Source of the DNA: a virus
Lineage: Duplodnaviria; Heunggongvirae; Uroviricota; Caudoviricetes
IMG/VR virus record: IMGVR_UViG_2703718819_000006
Reading direction: 5' to 3' (one strand)
DNA: 64,000 bases
Shown in pieces: positions 43,238-50,588 of the stretch. The translations under genes and the position numbers were made by a program. How positions within the stretch are numbered: position 1 is the first letter of the stretch; the number at the start of each line of letters is the position of its first letter. Below the pieces are notes generated by a model, which saw only the letters and a list, made by a program, of their open reading frames with translations, was not told where the DNA came from and ran no database searches.

Positions 43238-45346
43238 TCACTTCAAAATGATACGAGATAGTTCAGTAACTACAGATGAACCAAGACTATCAACGCTCGT
43301 TACCAGGGCATGATTTGAGTAAAATCTCTCCGGTGCGTCAGTCATGATGCCAATTGCCATCAAATCAATGTCAGTCTGCGTTTCAATTTGCTTCGCAACC
43401 GAACGCAAATGAGCGTCAAAACCTCTCCCAACAGCCAACGGCGCGCCATCACTCAGAACAAGCATGATCTTCCTGTCCTCCATGCGACCGGAAAATAACG
43501 ATGCAAGGCTGGCTATGCTTTCACCATCCACGTTATTAAGAAGTGGGAATGTGTAGCCTACGCACCCCATACGTGAGCGAACTTCGCGAGAATTTACCTT
43601 TTCATTCCAATTTTTGATGATAGGTAGCATTAAAGATTCAAAGCGAGAGAACTCATACTTGACAGCCTTAAGTTCTCCTGCCGCCATATGACTACCAAAT
43701 GTAGTGAAGCCGGTGATAATGTTGGGAACATTTATTCGATCAAGGGCATCGGCGATGGTATATGCACTTGCAAGAGCCAATTGTATCGTTATACCACTCA
43801 TTGAACCTGATAAATCAATCACTTGTTGAACACAGGCGTTAACGGCTTTAGATTCTTCTTTTTTACGAAACACGCGATCATCATTCATTGCTAATCTGTA
43901 GATACTAGAACCATGAATGCGCCCCCGACGCTGGCCCGGTATAAACTGAACTCTGTTTCTGCTTGCTATTGCTCGCTCCAGATCTTTTGCCAGCGTCGAC
44001 GAAACACCTGACGAAAGATGCTTTTCAATATATTTGTCGAAGAGCTGGTTGCCTTCAGGAACGATGCGATAGCGGCTGATTGGATATCCTCCTAAATCAA
44101 TATCGGAGAATGTTTTAATAAGCCGTTTGATATGGGCTTCTGCCTGATCAATCGAGCCGATGAAGTCGTATGAGCGATTGTATGGTCTGTATTCGCTTTT
44201 CGAGCTTTCTGTTAACTCGCTTTTAATCGTTTCGGATAGCGCATCTTCTGTCATGCCTCCGACTTCATCTTCCATGCTATCCAACTCCTCTAAAGCCTCT
44301 TCCAGACTCATTTTTGACGGAGTTGGAATGTCTGAAGAGCCGTCTTCTGTCGATTTTCTTTTTTCGTGGTCAGTGGTAAATGATTCTGACGCCGCGTTAT
44401 CAGAAGCACCAGAATCTGATACCTCTTTATCATTTTCTGTATCATCGAATATTGTTTCTGATGATTCAGAATTATCTGAATCATCACTGTCGTTATTATC
44501 ATGTTTGTGCTTACTGTGTGATTCTGATTTGATAGATTTGTGATTATCTACCGCTGAGGGTGTCTCATGATCTTCGTTGTCTTCATTGTTTTCTCCAGAG
44601 GCATCCGTCTGGTCAGCGTCTGAAGGATCGGAAGTTTTTCCCGGAGCTGACTCCTTACCTTTGCTTTCACTTTCAGTGTCTTTGAGGATCTTAGCTATGG
44701 TCGCAGCCACCTTTACACAATCCTCGGTGCAAGACATGTTACGCACGGCCACATCGATACCATGTTCTTTTAATAATGAAATTGGTTTCTCAATGACAGG
44801 CCAATATTCATCCATGAAATCTACGAACGGTGCTTGGCCATCCCAGGCTCTTACAACCGGACAGAGAAAGAAGTTTAGAAAAAGCGCGCGCTGATCTTTG
44901 CCACAATAAGCAATAGCCTCTGAAGCCTTTGGTTTAAAGACTTTTTCGATTATAAGGCGCTGAGTTGCCATCAGATTACGTCTTGTTCCGTTAAAGACCT
45001 GACCCATTTTTCGCTCGATGAACACGTCTTCTAAGGCATTCCATAGCGACCAGGAAGGAACGCGTCCCTTTTCTCTCATTTTGTTGGACACACGAATATC
45101 GGTAAACAAAATGTGAGCAACCTCATGATCGAGAAATCCGCGCACAGCATTCATCAATGCCGGTGTTGCGTTATCCGGGATTGATGGGATGTTTACGAGA
45201 ATTGGCTCTCCATCATCGTTATAGCGTACATAAGCGTCGTCCCCTCGTTCTGCAACAGGGATGTTTTTACCTGAAAGGAGAGCGACTACTCGTTTTACAC
45301 TGTCACGGAAGTCCTGAACCTCTTTGATGGAACGTTTTTTAGACAT
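43238..45346 (-). CDS. CobT-like protein with acidic linker and C-terminal von Willebrand A domain
   Basis: Long D/E/S-rich segment; MIDAS motif DLSGSMSG. Confidence 0.65.
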   Translation of the reverse strand: MSKKRSIKEVQDFRDSVKRVVALLSGKNIPVAERGDDAYVRYNDDGEPILVNIPSIPDNATPALMNAVRGFLDHEVAHILFTDIRVSNKMREKGRVPSWSLWNALEDVFIERKMGQVFNGTRRNLMATQRLIIEKVFKPKASEAIAYCGKDQRALFLNFFLCPVVRAWDGQAPFVDFMDEYWPVIEKPISLLKEHGIDVAVRNMSCTEDCVKVAATIAKILKDTESESKGKESAPGKTSDPSDADQTDASGENNEDNEDHETPSAVDNHKSIKSESHSKHKHDNNDSDDSDNSESSETIFDDTENDKEVSDSGASDNAASESFTTDHEKRKSTEDGSSDIPTPSKMSLEEALEELDSMEDEVGGMTEDALSETIKSELTESSKSEYRPYNRSYDFIGSIDQAEAHIKRLIKTFSDIDLGGYPISRYRIVPEGNQLFDKYIEKHLSSGVSSTLAKDLERAIASRNRVQFIPGQRRGRIHGSSIYRLAMNDDRVFRKKEESKAVNACVQQVIDLSGSMSGITIQLALASAYTIADALDRINVPNIITGFTTFGSHMAAGELKAVKYEFSRFESLMLPIIKNWNEKVNSREVRSRMGCVGYTFPLLNNVDGESIASLASLFSGRMEDRKIMLVLSDGAPLAVGRGFDAHLRSVAKQIETQTDIDLMAIGIMTDAPERFYSNHALVTSVDSLGSSVVTELSRIILK

Positions 45347-45908: not shown

Positions 45909-46295
45909 ATGTCTGATAACAAGATTGAATTTATAGAAAGTCGCTATGCTGCTTTTATCGCAGGGCTGATTGAATCCTCACCTATGAGTCAGGCCCAAAT
46001 AGCCAGACTTATTGGTTATAAAAATGCCAACAACCTTTCTTTAATTAAAAGTGGCAAAATTCCTTTGCCTATCGATAAGGTTCGTCCGTTGGCGCTGGCG
46101 CTGGGTATTGAGCCAAGTCGTCTTATGATGATGGTGCTGGAAGAACGCCAACCTGAACTCGCAGCATTTTTATACAAAGAAGGCACCGCTCCTCTTAACG
46201 AGGACGAAAAACAGGTTCTTGCTGCATATAACGAGCGATTCGGTAAAGAGAAAGGCGCATCACAAAAGGTTGTTGAGGCTATAAAGTCTCTATGA
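45909..46295 (+). CDS. helix-turn-helix (XRE-like) transcriptional regulator
   Basis: HTH segment SQAQIARLIGYKNANNLSLIKSG; convergent with recombinase gene. Confidence 0.6.
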   Translation: MSDNKIEFIESRYAAFIAGLIESSPMSQAQIARLIGYKNANNLSLIKSGKIPLPIDKVRPLALALGIEPSRLMMMVLEERQPELAAFLYKEGTAPLNEDEKQVLAAYNERFGKEKGASQKVVEAIKSL

Positions 46296-47393
46296 AAAAT
46301 TTACACGAATAAGCTCTGTTGATAGACGATCTCCCTTGAATTTGTGGTCAATTTCGTCTAAATCCGGTTGCTCTACGATTGATGCGATGTACGTCGAGAA
46401 ACTTTCTAAGGCGTCTCGCATCTCGTCCATATAATCGTGCCGGTCGTAGACTCGATCTATCCCCTCAAGACTGTGGTTCATGATTTTGCGTGATACCTCC
46501 TGGCTTATGCCTAATGCTGGGAAGTAACTACGCGCAGTACGGCGCAAGTCTCGGGGTGTAAATGGCTCAAGCTCCATCAGTTCTGGTCGTTCCAGAATAC
46601 GACGTAATGCCTGGGCTATTGCCACTTTAGACATAGGAAGGTCTTTCCCGATTTTTTTATTCGAAGGCACGAGCCACTGGCTGCCTTTACCGTATTCGAA
46701 CAACTCTTCAATACATGTGCGCATTAATGTGCTTAAAGGCAGCGAATGCTCACGGGCAGATTTGTTCCTCTTGCCTTGATTCCAAACCCCATGCTTAAGA
46801 TTGAACTCACTTTTTTTAGCCCGCAGTACTTCGTCAGGTCGTCTTGCGGATACAAGACACAGCCTGGCCGCCCATTTTGTACCAGCGCACACATTGAAGT
46901 AGTCCCATATATTCCAGAACACCCATACCTCTGCGTCGGTCAGCTTCCGCTCGCGAGGTGTTGGCTTTGCGCCACCGGCAACTTTGTTAAGTGACATATC
47001 GTTTAACGGTGACACGTCTATCATCCCCTGGAAGGCGCACCAGCTAAGGAACTGCTTCATCAGAGAGAAAACGCGGCGGCCCATAACAATTTTGCCATCC
47101 AGTATTAGTGGGTTGACCAGTTGGTTCACCATGAACCTATTAATGTCACTTACTTTTACATCGGCAATGTGCGGCAAAACATGTATCAAAATACAATGAA
47201 CAGCGATCTCTGGCCGACGTCTTGTTATCAGCAAAGATAAGCGAGTGAATAACATGAATGCGTCCGAGAATCTCATGTCATTGCTGACCTGGGAGATCAT
47301 AACGGCCTGCATTTGAGATGCTCTTTCGAGATACTCAATCGCCTCTTTTGAGGTGTTCTCCGCAGCGCGTGCTCTGTCAAAGCTATTTTTCAT
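46290..47393 (-). CDS. tyrosine site-specific recombinase / integrase
   Basis: C-terminal R..HxxR..Y catalytic pattern (TPRDLRRTARSYF, HSLEGIDRVYDRHDY). Confidence 0.75.
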   Translation of the reverse strand: MKNSFDRARAAENTSKEAIEYLERASQMQAVMISQVSNDMRFSDAFMLFTRLSLLITRRRPEIAVHCILIHVLPHIADVKVSDINRFMVNQLVNPLILDGKIVMGRRVFSLMKQFLSWCAFQGMIDVSPLNDMSLNKVAGGAKPTPRERKLTDAEVWVFWNIWDYFNVCAGTKWAARLCLVSARRPDEVLRAKKSEFNLKHGVWNQGKRNKSAREHSLPLSTLMRTCIEELFEYGKGSQWLVPSNKKIGKDLPMSKVAIAQALRRILERPELMELEPFTPRDLRRTARSYFPALGISQEVSRKIMNHSLEGIDRVYDRHDYMDEMRDALESFSTYIASIVEQPDLDEIDHKFKGDRLSTELIRVNFS

Positions 47394-47491
47394 ATGACAA
47401 TCACCGAGTTACGCCGATGCACTGTATAAGTAAACAGTATATTAGGCATAGATTCTTATAGGATCAAGAGTCAAAGTAACTCATTTTTAGT

Positions 47492-47524
47492 AATGATTCC
47501 ATACATAGTAGGTATGGAATCATT
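47492..47524. promoter_or_regulatory. lox/dif-like recombination site candidate: 13-bp inverted repeats with 7-bp spacer
   Basis: aatgattccatac atagtag gtatggaatcatt, ~100 bp upstream of recombinase gene. Confidence 0.5.
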
Positions 47525-47712
47525 TTAGGTCTAAAATTTAAATCTGTAATATCTATAGAGAGGAATTGCACGAAAACCGATAACCCTTTATAGCGAGGAT
47601 TATTGGTTTATTTTTGTTATGGCGTCGTTGTTCCGCCGGGATTATCAAGTTCGATTTTGAGATTTTGATCAGAGCGTTGGCCCTGTGGGACACTGAAGCT
47701 ATTACTTTTGGA

Positions 47713-48129
47713 TCAGGAGGCGTGAAACTTTTCTGCAACGTCTGAAAAAAACTTTAGCAACCTAGTATCTCTAGCAGACATGCGATCGTGAGCTGGAGTG
47801 ACTAAACCCATCAGCAAATAACGGCCGCTCTCCCACATATGCTCGGTATAGATGAGATAGTGATCTGAGGTTCGATTGTAGTTTTCTTGCCTTGCAGTCC
47901 AAGTTAACTGGTAATGCAAATTTACATGAATATGTTGGACGTTAGCGTCAACGGCAAACGGAGGAAAGTCGAATGGCGCATCCCTACCGAGAAGGTTGGA
48001 CGGCTTACCCGTGGATTTGTAGGTAATGAACTCAGTTTTGAGCTGACTTTCCAGATCAGGATAAACGACAAACGTGGGTTGAAAAAAATCAACCCACGTA
48101 TCTTGACTGTATTCAGCCGTCAATGCCAT
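47713..48129 (-). CDS. hypothetical protein; possible YafO-family toxin-like (weak, from memory)
   Basis: Motifs GRDAPFD, HIHV, RTSDHYLIY, YLLMGLVTPAHD; overlaps upstream gene by 10 nt. Confidence 0.3.
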   Translation of the reverse strand: MALTAEYSQDTWVDFFQPTFVVYPDLESQLKTEFITYKSTGKPSNLLGRDAPFDFPPFAVDANVQHIHVNLHYQLTWTARQENYNRTSDHYLIYTEHMWESGRYLLMGLVTPAHDRMSARDTRLLKFFSDVAEKFHAS

Positions 48130-48668
48130 TTAGCCGCAGCCTTGTTGCCAGTCATCAATAGATGGTTCATGGCAGAAAGGTTCACGCCAGACTCACGCAC
48201 ACAAGAGGTGCGAGTAATCTGATCAATCAGATTTAGATAATTTTTGGCGGCAATACTGACCATTTTAATAGCTTTAAAGAAGGCAAACTCTACAGCGTTT
48301 TTGTCGTAAGACAAAATGACGTCTTTTTCAGGTAACATCAAAACGAAAGATTCTGCGATACCGGCTACATGAATAGTTTGATTCTTAATTTCTTCCGCTA
48401 CATTGATAGCAGCAAAGAAGTCAGTATCAGCATAACGAGCAAGTTCAGCGCGGCTTGCGCGAAGTTCTGTCGCTAGCTCATTAAGGGCTGCTGTAAGATC
48501 ACTGATGTCGGTTTTATTGACTCTAGCGCCCATCTCATAAACCCGCTCTACAATAGTAGGCTGACACGCAACCGCTTTTGGTTGCGGCTGGATACTGGCA
48601 AGAACCAGTGCCACTGCTGCCTGTAAATGCTGGATTTTAAATTTCACGATAGACTCCATTGTCGTCAT
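48120..48668 (-). CDS. hypothetical protein (upstream partner of 47713..48129)
   Basis: ORF track. Confidence 0.45.
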   Translation of the reverse strand: MTTMESIVKFKIQHLQAAVALVLASIQPQPKAVACQPTIVERVYEMGARVNKTDISDLTAALNELATELRASRAELARYADTDFFAAINVAEEIKNQTIHVAGIAESFVLMLPEKDVILSYDKNAVEFAFFKAIKMVSIAAKNYLNLIDQITRTSCVRESGVNLSAMNHLLMTGNKAAAKWH

Positions 48669-48795
48669 TTCTCGACGAGGCGTAGCATTCTACTACTGAA
48701 TCTAACTATAAGCTAAAAAAACTTGGTTGCATATGCGACTTAGACTGCAAAACACGAAATGAAAAATTAAAGGCCGCTTTCACGGCCCTTTAAAG

Positions 48796-49608: not shown

Positions 49609-49695
49609 TGGCGGAGAGTAATGGAATCGAACCATCATCGCTTGCGCAATGGGACGGTTTTCAAGACCGCTTGAGCACCATGCTCCCTACTCTCC
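49609..49695 (-). tRNA. tRNA-Ser (anticodon TGA), type II with long variable arm
   Basis: Hand-folded: acceptor GGAGAGT/ACTCTCC, anticodon loop CTTGAAA, T-loop GGTTCGATTCC, encoded GCCA 3' end. Confidence 0.7.
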
Positions 49696-50341
49696 AATTG
49701 TTGTGGTGCCGGGTGCCTCCCGGTGTCCTTTGGCTGGTTATCCACCGTGAACGGGGCCACAGATGTCATAAGATGAGCAATATAACCATTTCCCCGCGTG
49801 CGCTTAGCCGCATTCACCACAACGGAAAGAGCATTCACATCTCGCGTGCCGCCACGAATAGCAACTCAGAGAGTCGAACTCTGAAAATGCTCTTACCTGT
49901 TGTGTGCTGTGTCACTCCCTCCGCTATTACCTGGCTTTGCCTCGACCTTTTAGGTTGCGTCCGATGATAAACAGGGCTGTCGGAAATTTGTCTGTGGCAC
50001 AGCGATAAGAGAACTCGATGCATTTAAGCCAAGCCCCATATGGGAAGTTCTCTTATCTGTTGTGCGCTCCGTTTCGTGGAGCTAACGGCGGGTGAACAGG
50101 CCGCACCAGGTTGGACATATTTCAGCGTTATGCTGTTGCAAGAGAGCCAAATTGTGATGGTCGGTGCTGAACTCCGACACAGGGTTGTAGCAAGCCCCGC
50201 AAAGCGCGCACTACTGTAGTTACGGCACATCAGCCTGTGCATTCATCACAATGTTGAGAACACTGGTTGTCACGCGGCAACGCAACATTTATTCATAAAT
50301 TGGGATATGAACCCGTTACGCCAATGTTCTCAATATTATGT

Positions 50342-50417
50342 TGGTGCCGGTTAACGGACTTGAACCGCTGGCCATTCGCTTACAAAGCGACTGCTCTACC
50401 AACTGAGCTAAACCGGC
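50342..50417 (-). tRNA. tRNA-Thr (anticodon TGT)
   Basis: Hand-folded: acceptor GCCGGTT/AACCGGC, D-arm GCTCAGTTGGTAGAGC, anticodon loop TTTGTAA, encoded CCA. Confidence 0.7.
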
Positions 50418-50421
50418 AATT

Positions 50422-50508
50422 TGGTGGGGAGTGATGGAGTCGAACCACCCGAGTCGCAATGACGGTAGATTTACAGTCTACACCGCTACCTCTACGGACT
50501 AACTCCCC
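50422..50508 (-). tRNA. tRNA-Tyr (anticodon GTA), type II
   Basis: Anticodon arm GTAGA-CTGTAAA-TCTAC, T-loop GGTTCGACTCC, acceptor GGGGAGT/ACTCCCC, encoded CCA. Confidence 0.75.
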
Positions 50509-50513
50509 TAAAT

Positions 50514-50588
50514 TGGCGATGGTGGGTGGATTCGAACCACCGACCAGTTGGTTAACAGCCAACTGCTCTACCGCTGAGCTACACCATC
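50514..50588 (-). tRNA. tRNA-Asn (anticodon GTT)
   Basis: Anticodon arm GTTGG-CTGTTAA-CCAAC, T-loop GGTTCGAATCC, acceptor GATGGTG/CACCATC. Confidence 0.75.

Follow-up and report, generated by a model that had tools for sequence, protein, structure and literature searches.

A long-form YafO toxin gene and its helical partner gene in an SSU5-like phage-plasmid: a probable toxin-antitoxin module

Introduction

The window analyzed here is a 64,000-nucleotide (nt) stretch of a tailed-phage genome (Caudoviricetes; IMG/VR record IMGVR_UViG_2703718819_000006). Two overlapping minus-strand genes at 47713-48668 raise the question of whether they form a toxin-antitoxin module and, if so, what kind of protein serves as the antitoxin. 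The pair is best explained as a bicistronic type II toxin-antitoxin module with an undescribed antitoxin family, which probably serves mainly the stability of the phage-plasmid that carries it. By sequence, the toxin represents a further member of a known family, and the partner is the candidate for the undescribed one. The features on which this reading depends are as follows.

48120-48668, minus strand: partner gene (putative antitoxin); the longest open reading frame (ORF), 48668..48120, encodes 182 amino acids (aa) from an ATG at 48668, and the likely start is a GTG at 48647, giving 175 aa.
47713-48129, minus strand: toxin gene of the YafO family, long form, 138 aa, read from an ATG (48129..47713).
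48120-48129, minus strand: 10-nt overlap of the two ORFs, ATGGCATTGA, with the toxin ATG within the last codons of the partner.

The toxin is a YafO family member

An earlier note on this DNA described two genes overlapping by 10 nt and, from sequence motifs, weakly assigned the 138-aa product to the YafO family. The ORF list gives 48120-48129 as shared by both genes, and the YafO assignment is borne out by a Pfam match, similarity to YafO of Escherichia coli K-12, invariant residues and the predicted fold. The motifs are found in the translation: GRDAPFD at residues 48-54, HIHV at 66-69, RTSDHYLIY at 86-94, and YLLMGLVTPAHD at 104-115. The profile hidden Markov model search against Pfam, which the note had proposed as a check, gives a significant match to YafO_toxin (PF13957; E 2.7e-21, 76 bits, gathering score 25) that spans toxin residues 36-136, i.e., profile positions 2-100 of 101. 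In a direct comparison, the toxin has 30% identity to K-12 YafO over 111 residues (E 1e-10). An alignment of eight sequences spanning 27-67% identity, E. coli YafO included, has the invariant family residues G48, D50, H68, L92, Y94, H114, A132, and F135, and all eight are present in the window toxin.

The predicted fold of the toxin is RelE/HigB-like, of the RelE/ParE superfamily (BECR). PF13957 is described as a BECR-fold toxin family of this superfamily with the gene order antitoxin-toxin, and the ribosome dependence of YafO is debated (PMC11980606). Ribosome dependence and cleavage specificity have both been noted as an open question (PMC8546651, PMC11980606). A sequence search of the Protein Data Bank found no YafO structure. 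Against the NCBIfam equivalog NF007377, which is specific for E. coli YafO, the toxin scores 52.7 bits, below the cutoff of 153. Judged by these matches, the toxin is a YafO family member of the long-form branch and not an orthologue of E. coli YafO.

Long-form YafO toxins and their partners

The YafO family is composed of 145 clusters. Among the 87 full-length clusters, 36 have toxins of 128-135 aa, mostly E. coli YafO-like, and 51 have toxins of 136-156 aa. Of the 51 long forms, 43 carry the N-terminal motif F[FL]xPxF, which all 36 short forms lack. A 97-aa Phd/YefM protein (PF02604) is the neighbour at the sampled short-form locus, as in K-12. Every sampled long-form locus (136-152-aa toxins) has an upstream protein of 168-205 aa without Pfam domains. 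These loci are located on Klebsiella phage-plasmids, a Pluralibacter chromosome, a Pantoea prophage, and a metagenome contig. In the Pantoea ananatis prophage (L036 1921-2941), the partner and YafO form a moron inside a tail/baseplate gene cluster, so the module is also carried by integrated phages.

The upstream proteins belong to three mutually homologous groups (hhalign 95.7%, E 1e-8, 110 columns), with pairwise links between groups of 5.6e-6 to 1e-4. Among the sampled loci, long-form YafO regularly comes with a large helical partner, and YafN is found with the short form only. The earlier note had called the upstream product unlike YafN and the pairing atypical. The first statement is correct, as BLASTP gives no alignment with YafN at E <= 100 and there is no PF02604 (Phd/YefM) match. 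The second is true relative to E. coli K-12 yafNO; it does not apply within the YafO family, where about half of the full-length clusters are long-form and the sampled ones are all paired in this way.

Members of the YafO toxin family are found in 620 PLSDB plasmids, 533 of them non-mobilizable, and the listed records are mostly of ~105-125 kb. The survey of Leplae et al. (2011) listed only 25 YafO sequences, with Phd or unclassified proteins as partners and no case on a plasmid or phage (PMC3141249).

The partner protein

The partner has no match in Pfam, NCBIfam, PHROGs, or PADLOC. In its AlphaFold2 (AF2) model (predicted local distance difference test, pLDDT, 83.6), the protein consists entirely of helices: three long ones and further helices at the N- and C-termini. 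Fold searches returned only generic helical bundles. The family is small: 39 clusters at 64% identity or more were found in a search of 5.8 billion proteins, and a profile search of 1.84 billion representatives gave only 24 matches. The subfamily to which the window protein belongs is present in 257 PLSDB plasmid records. As a candidate antitoxin family, the partner is unannotated: it has neither a Pfam nor an NCBIfam model, and hundreds of records call it 'hypothetical protein'. One cluster member carries the UniRef label 'YfdX protein', which is unsupported (hhalign 0.2%, BLASTP E 0.13, no match to Pfam YfdX).

An alignment of 16 partner sequences, down to 19% identity, has only four invariant residues, Q150, A166, L170, and G174, all in a C-terminal helix-loop-helix. 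This region is also the sole segment aligned to the L019 partner (93.8%, E 1.6e-7), and it is proposed to neutralise the toxin.

48120-48260, minus strand: C-terminal ~45 residues of the partner, composed of the helix NYLNLIDQ, a loop, and the helix NHLLMTGNKAAAKWH; proposed toxin-neutralising region.

A 33-nt segment within the partner gene (window 48352-48384; L033 401-433) has a 100% match in six complete E. coli chromosomes. Five of the six matches are in annotated arrays of clustered regularly interspaced short palindromic repeats (CRISPR), and the sixth is at a place without an annotated feature. In NZ_CP020107.1, the leader-distal spacer AATCAAACTATTCATGTAGCCGGTATCGCAGA, between type I-E repeats, matches the partner gene. 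On the minus strand of the window, AA precedes the protospacer, whose first letter is G; together they give the canonical AAG protospacer-adjacent motif. It follows that E. coli has acquired immunity to exactly the partner gene.

Translation start, gene overlap and promoter

The true start of the partner is most likely the GTG at 48647. A Shine-Dalgarno sequence, GGAG, is located at 48657..48654, 6 nt 5' of this GTG, and homologous partners initiate at the equivalent codon. The Erwinia copy (L004) starts with TTG and has no in-frame ATG upstream, and the Klebsiella copy (L016) starts with an ATG that follows an in-frame TAA. On related plasmids, the Prokaryotic Genome Annotation Pipeline (PGAP) annotates the partner as 175 aa. 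The GTG is taken as the start because of the GGAG spacing, the start codons of the homologues, and the PGAP calls.

The 10-nt overlap is kept in 17 loci, including homologues that are only 29% (partner) and 44% (toxin) identical to the window pair. Every intact locus of this partner subfamily has the same two genes with the same overlap. The position of the toxin ATG within the last partner codons implies that translation of the toxin would be coupled to that of the partner through the overlap.

The module also appears to have its own promoter.

48669-48745, minus strand: promoter/leader region that moves with the module; conserved across contexts.

In the leader, a near-palindrome GTCGCATATGCAAC at 48739..48726 is followed by a run of seven T. 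A -35-like TTAGCT (48716..48711) and a -10 TAGAAT (48692..48687) are separated by an 18-nt spacer. The ~75 nt 5' of the partner gene are conserved in all contexts, i.e., phage-plasmids, Erwinia, Pseudescherichia, Pantoea, and Leclercia, and the -10 variants are limited to TAGAAT, TAAAAT, and TACAAT. A promoter-consensus scan did not flag this putative promoter because the -35 is weak. Just upstream of the module, a rho-independent-type terminator (48790..48769) ends the glutaredoxin operon.

The two genes as a unit

The pair and its leader occupy a phage-plasmid slot in Escherichia, Citrobacter, Enterobacter, and Klebsiella. On the Erwinia chromosome, the module is located between a methyl-accepting chemotaxis protein (chemoreceptor) gene and dak, and on Pseudescherichia chromosomes it follows exbBD. 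Overall, the module was found in the genomes of 12 species. Partner and toxin identities to the window pair are 92/92, 93/88, 80/85, 78/76, 77/75, 66/67, 50/67, and 29/44%, and the partner diverges faster than the toxin. Antitoxins usually diverge faster than toxins. In both genes, columns that are invariant at the amino-acid level carry synonymous codon variation; by this signature, both genes are under purifying selection at the protein level. The pair is more than a chance association because the same genes and overlap recur and both genes have this synonymous variation.

The decay of the module is asymmetric. In the complete E. coli genomes, 15 plasmids carry the module in full; in 14 others the toxin is gone and the promoter and partner remain (14/29). 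The 14 toxin-less plasmids, including L014, share a single deletion end point. In Pseudescherichia vulneris and a related metagenome-assembled genome (L028, L029), a clean ~397-bp deletion removed the toxin and fused the partner to the last toxin codons; toxin-bearing relatives of these loci are 99.4% and 94.6% identical. In the loci with a broken partner (L017, L032), the toxin is damaged as well, and an intact toxin with a broken partner was not seen among the loci examined. Loss of the toxin with retention of the partner is the pattern expected of a toxin and its antitoxin, and it is supportive, not conclusive.

Genomic setting

The window belongs to an SSU5-like phage-plasmid. In the regions flanking the module, it is 97.6% identical to Escherichia phage Cyrano and also matches phage CMS-2020a. 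On the plus strand, the order is a CobT-like gene, a helix-turn-helix (HTH) regulator, a tyrosine integrase (46290-47393), the module, glutaredoxin, an N4-gp49-family gene, and four tRNAs. At the corresponding place in Cyrano (L001 4384-5389 vs window 47400-48795), there is a different gene on the opposite strand, CYRAN_43 (555 nt, 184 aa, no Pfam match). The presence of a different gene in the same slot indicates that the module is accessory cargo.

The slot between the integrase gene and grxA is a cargo-exchange point: L016 has an extra 286-aa ORF there, and L020 has a colicin-E1-family microcin immunity gene. At window 47492-47524, ~100 bp upstream of the integrase gene, there is a lox/dif-like site made of a perfect 13-bp inverted repeat, AATGATTCCATAC and GTATGGAATCATT, around the 7-bp spacer ATAGTAG; none is expected by chance. 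The site is exactly kept in L001 (Cyrano, which does not have the module), L002, L003, L014, and the distant L015. The recombinase probably targets this site, which marks one edge of the variable slot.

In a distant SSU5-like relative, genes with matches to Sequestin (PF21825) and weak matches to Acb2/Tad1-hairpin (PF24729) are found at L009 1063-1499 and L010 1035-1471. They are located between phoH and grxA, adjoin the YafO module, and are possible anti-defence cargo.

The tRNA cluster (49609-50588) is made up of Ser(tga), Thr(tgt), Tyr(gta), and Asn(gtt), with a gap of ~650 nt between Ser and Thr. In Cyrano, the cluster is closely packed and limited to Ser, Thr, and Asn; the window thus has an extra tRNA-Tyr and an insertion. 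The CobT-like gene (43238-45346) encodes a 702-aa CobT/VWA-like protein with a long acidic, Ser/Asp/Glu-rich low-complexity insert at residues ~225-345. Its Cyrano orthologue is labelled 'dimethylbenzimidazole phosphoribosyltransferase', a label unsupported by the Pfam matches, which are CobT, CobT_C, and VWA.

Proposed mechanism and alternative explanations

The sequence comparisons establish the gene structure, the family of the toxin with its predicted fold, linkage and co-divergence of the two genes, purifying selection, and asymmetric decay. The toxicity of the 138-aa product, its neutralisation by binding, the interface, promoter activity and autoregulation, and the biological role are inferred, and the mechanism proposed for them is as follows. 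The cassette's own sigma-70-type promoter would transcribe the partner gene first, and the toxin would be translated by coupling via the 10-nt overlap. By analogy with E. coli YafO, the long-form toxin would be a RelE/ParE-superfamily (BECR-fold) endoribonuclease that stops translation by cutting mRNA. The 175-aa helical partner would be the cognate antitoxin and would neutralise the toxin by direct binding. The partner probably makes contact through its conserved C-terminal helix-loop-helix, and the toxin through an N-terminal segment specific to long forms, TWxxFFxPTF. The most likely benefit is stable inheritance of the plasmid state of a low-copy phage-plasmid through post-segregational killing. 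A role in phage exclusion or defence is possible and would be compatible with the copies in a prophage and on chromosomes and with the location in an accessory slot.

Several observations weigh against this mechanism. A literature search found no paper on the pairing of long-form YafO with a helical partner, and PADLOC-DB 2.0 has 0 families at E <= 1 for either protein. The partner has no recognisable DNA-binding domain (HTH, ribbon-helix-helix (RHH), AbrB, or Phd), which leaves classical autoregulation unsupported. The decay evidence comes from few independent events, namely one E. coli plasmid lineage and one or two in Pseudescherichia, and in the E. coli deletion lineage the surviving partner is also without its last ~13 residues. 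The N-terminus of the partner has an n-h-c and -3/-1 layout that looks like a Sec signal peptide. With a functional signal peptide, the partner would exit the cytoplasm, where the toxin acts.

48567-48647, minus strand: N-terminal 27 residues of the partner in its 175-aa form, MKFKIQHLQAAVALVLASIQPQPKAVA; two Lys, a 10-12-residue apolar core, and AVA|C.

Export of the partner would make it a periplasmic helical protein, and the pair would not be a classical type II system. Either only the short-lived cytoplasmic precursor would neutralise the toxin, with the antitoxin removed by export and not by proteolysis, or the two genes would be linked for a different reason. In a hand-made scan of hydrophobicity, charge, and -3/-1 residues, all 12 subfamily members examined, among them partners with as little as 19-30% identity, carry a net charge of +1 or +2 ahead of a 10-15-residue apolar core (Kyte-Doolittle mean >2.2), which is too short for a membrane span. 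Small -3/-1 residues follow at positions 21-29, e.g., MKFKIQHLQAAVALVLASIQPQPKAVA|CQ in the window and MKDSITKIAMVVALALSSLSHGSYA|KD in Enterobacter plasmids. The stretch after the N-terminal helix is polar, variable, and of lower model confidence, which also speaks for export. The sister-group partners are paired with YafO alike, yet their homologous N-terminal helix is polar or preceded by acidic residues (MEDMTVISSVLATVTSDASRF; a short ATIGLLM core) and cannot be a signal peptide. Signal peptides normally drift, whereas no part of the protein is better conserved among close homologues than the apolar helix, which has synonymous variation at its invariant columns. Its AF2 pLDDT is 78-88. The toxin lacks an export signal, and the relatives known for it target mRNA in the cytoplasm. 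A structural or toxin-binding helix is therefore favoured over export, which is unlikely, and an explanation of the pair built on export is unlikely to the same degree. Slightly less probable still is true Sec export in which the antitoxin is cleared from the cytoplasm by secretion instead of proteolysis. If this were the case, release of the RNase would be tied to the state of protein export or membrane energy or, alternatively, to how fast the antitoxin is newly made once the phage-plasmid is lost. A phrase search of the literature found no report of an exported antitoxin.

The strongest competitor to plasmid addiction keeps the YafO RNase and its protein antitoxin and differs only in the selected role, which would be abortive infection or superinfection exclusion. 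This role is a tentative second choice. It is favoured by the variable accessory slot, with a different gene in Cyrano and extra cargo such as the L020 immunity gene in relatives, by the existence of chromosomal copies, and by the Pantoea prophage moron, where plasmid addiction is irrelevant. Anti-defence-type genes (Sequestin, Acb2/Tad1-like) are nearby in relatives, and RelE/ParE-superfamily toxins are increasingly tied to defence (PMC11980606). However, no PADLOC family matches either protein, there is no evident trigger or sensor, and the strong association with low-copy, non-mobilizable phage-plasmids fits addiction at least equally. The two roles are not mutually exclusive.

Control of the toxin by RNA, by an intragenic hairpin, or by a small downstream ORF, with a partner of unrelated function, is very unlikely. 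This explanation draws on the missing antitoxin-type domain of the partner, on a perfect hairpin at the 5' end of the toxin gene, and on a 61-aa ORF (47553..47738) that overlaps the end of the toxin; in one relative, PGAP annotates a 64-aa ORF downstream.

48072-48099, minus strand: perfect 11-bp hairpin with a U-rich tail, 30 nt inside the toxin ORF; probably not functional.

About half of the loci have the hairpin, and covariation does not support it (70.3% of cells paired vs 68.4% in shuffles; 56/500 shuffles were as high). It was rejected as an attenuator, its stem (48099..48072) being formed by the conserved T-W and P-T-F codons. The 61-aa ORF was ruled out as an alternative antitoxin because the downstream region is not conserved between contexts: matches to E. 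coli plasmids end at window 47756, and in the Pseudescherichia locus the next gene begins 65 nt past the toxin. No element other than the partner accompanies the toxin everywhere and diverges together with it. Least probable of all is a decaying, non-functional remnant. Degraded copies do exist (L014, L017, L028/29, L032), but both ORFs are intact in the window, the window toxin keeps all family-invariant residues, synonymous variation underlies the invariant columns of both genes, and an identical toxin is present on 137 contigs. A type II module with the partner as antitoxin remains the preferred reading.

Significance and comparison with known systems

Within the small YafO family, the long-form half appears to have the partner family as its regular companion. 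In SSU5-like phage-plasmids from Escherichia, Klebsiella, Enterobacter, Citrobacter, and Salmonella, YafO-type modules have a fixed accessory slot. The SSU5 shell genome includes toxin-antitoxin systems (Pfeifer et al., PMC7969092), and a published survey has linked SSU5-like phage-plasmids to multidrug-resistant lineages (10.1101/2025.09.12.675607). If the module enforces inheritance of the plasmid state, it would help explain the persistence of these elements. An antitoxin with no DNA-binding domain and a signal-peptide-like N-terminus would be unusual. Novel antitoxin families for known toxins are frequent discoveries, and the advance is incremental for this reason unless the partner is in fact exported.

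The closest characterized system is YafN-YafO of E. coli K-12, encoded in the dinB-yafN-yafO-yafP operon. It shares with the window module a PF13957 toxin (30% identity, with the invariant residues), the order antitoxin then toxin, and the expected cleavage of mRNA that blocks translation (PMC11980606). The antitoxins differ: YafN is a 97-aa protein of the Phd/YefM type, whereas the candidate antitoxin here is a 175-aa all-helical protein without similarity to it. The window toxin has an extra N-terminal segment with FFxPTF, and short-form YafO has neither. The window module has its own promoter region on a phage-plasmid, whereas K-12 yafNO is part of the SOS dinB operon. The phage-plasmid location also differs from the YafO genes of Leplae et al. 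(2011), which were on chromosomes only (PMC3141249).

Other RelE/ParE-superfamily modules are more distant. HigB2/HigA2 of Vibrio cholerae, YoeB-YefM, RelBE, and YafQ-DinJ have toxins with only 7-20% identity to the window toxin. Their antitoxins carry HTH, RHH, or Phd DNA-binding domains, and the gene order of HigBA is reversed relative to the window module.

The phd-doc module of phage-plasmid P1 is alike in being a type II addiction module on a low-copy plasmid phage, the role proposed here (PMC7969092). The proteins are unrelated, as Doc is a Fic-family kinase and Phd a small antitoxin, and addiction has been demonstrated in P1 and is proposed by inference for the window.

The nearest relatives in setting are the YafO modules of Klebsiella and Enterobacter SSU5-like elements, annotated as 'hypothetical protein' and 'YafO family toxin'. 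They have the same grxA-integrase slot and architecture, remotely homologous partners (the hhalign link given above), and toxins that are 28-67% identical. The Klebsiella groups have a 9-nt intergenic gap in place of the 10-nt overlap of the window. The partners are 178-205 aa long, with N-termini that are polar or weakly apolar and, unlike that of the window partner, not signal-peptide-like.

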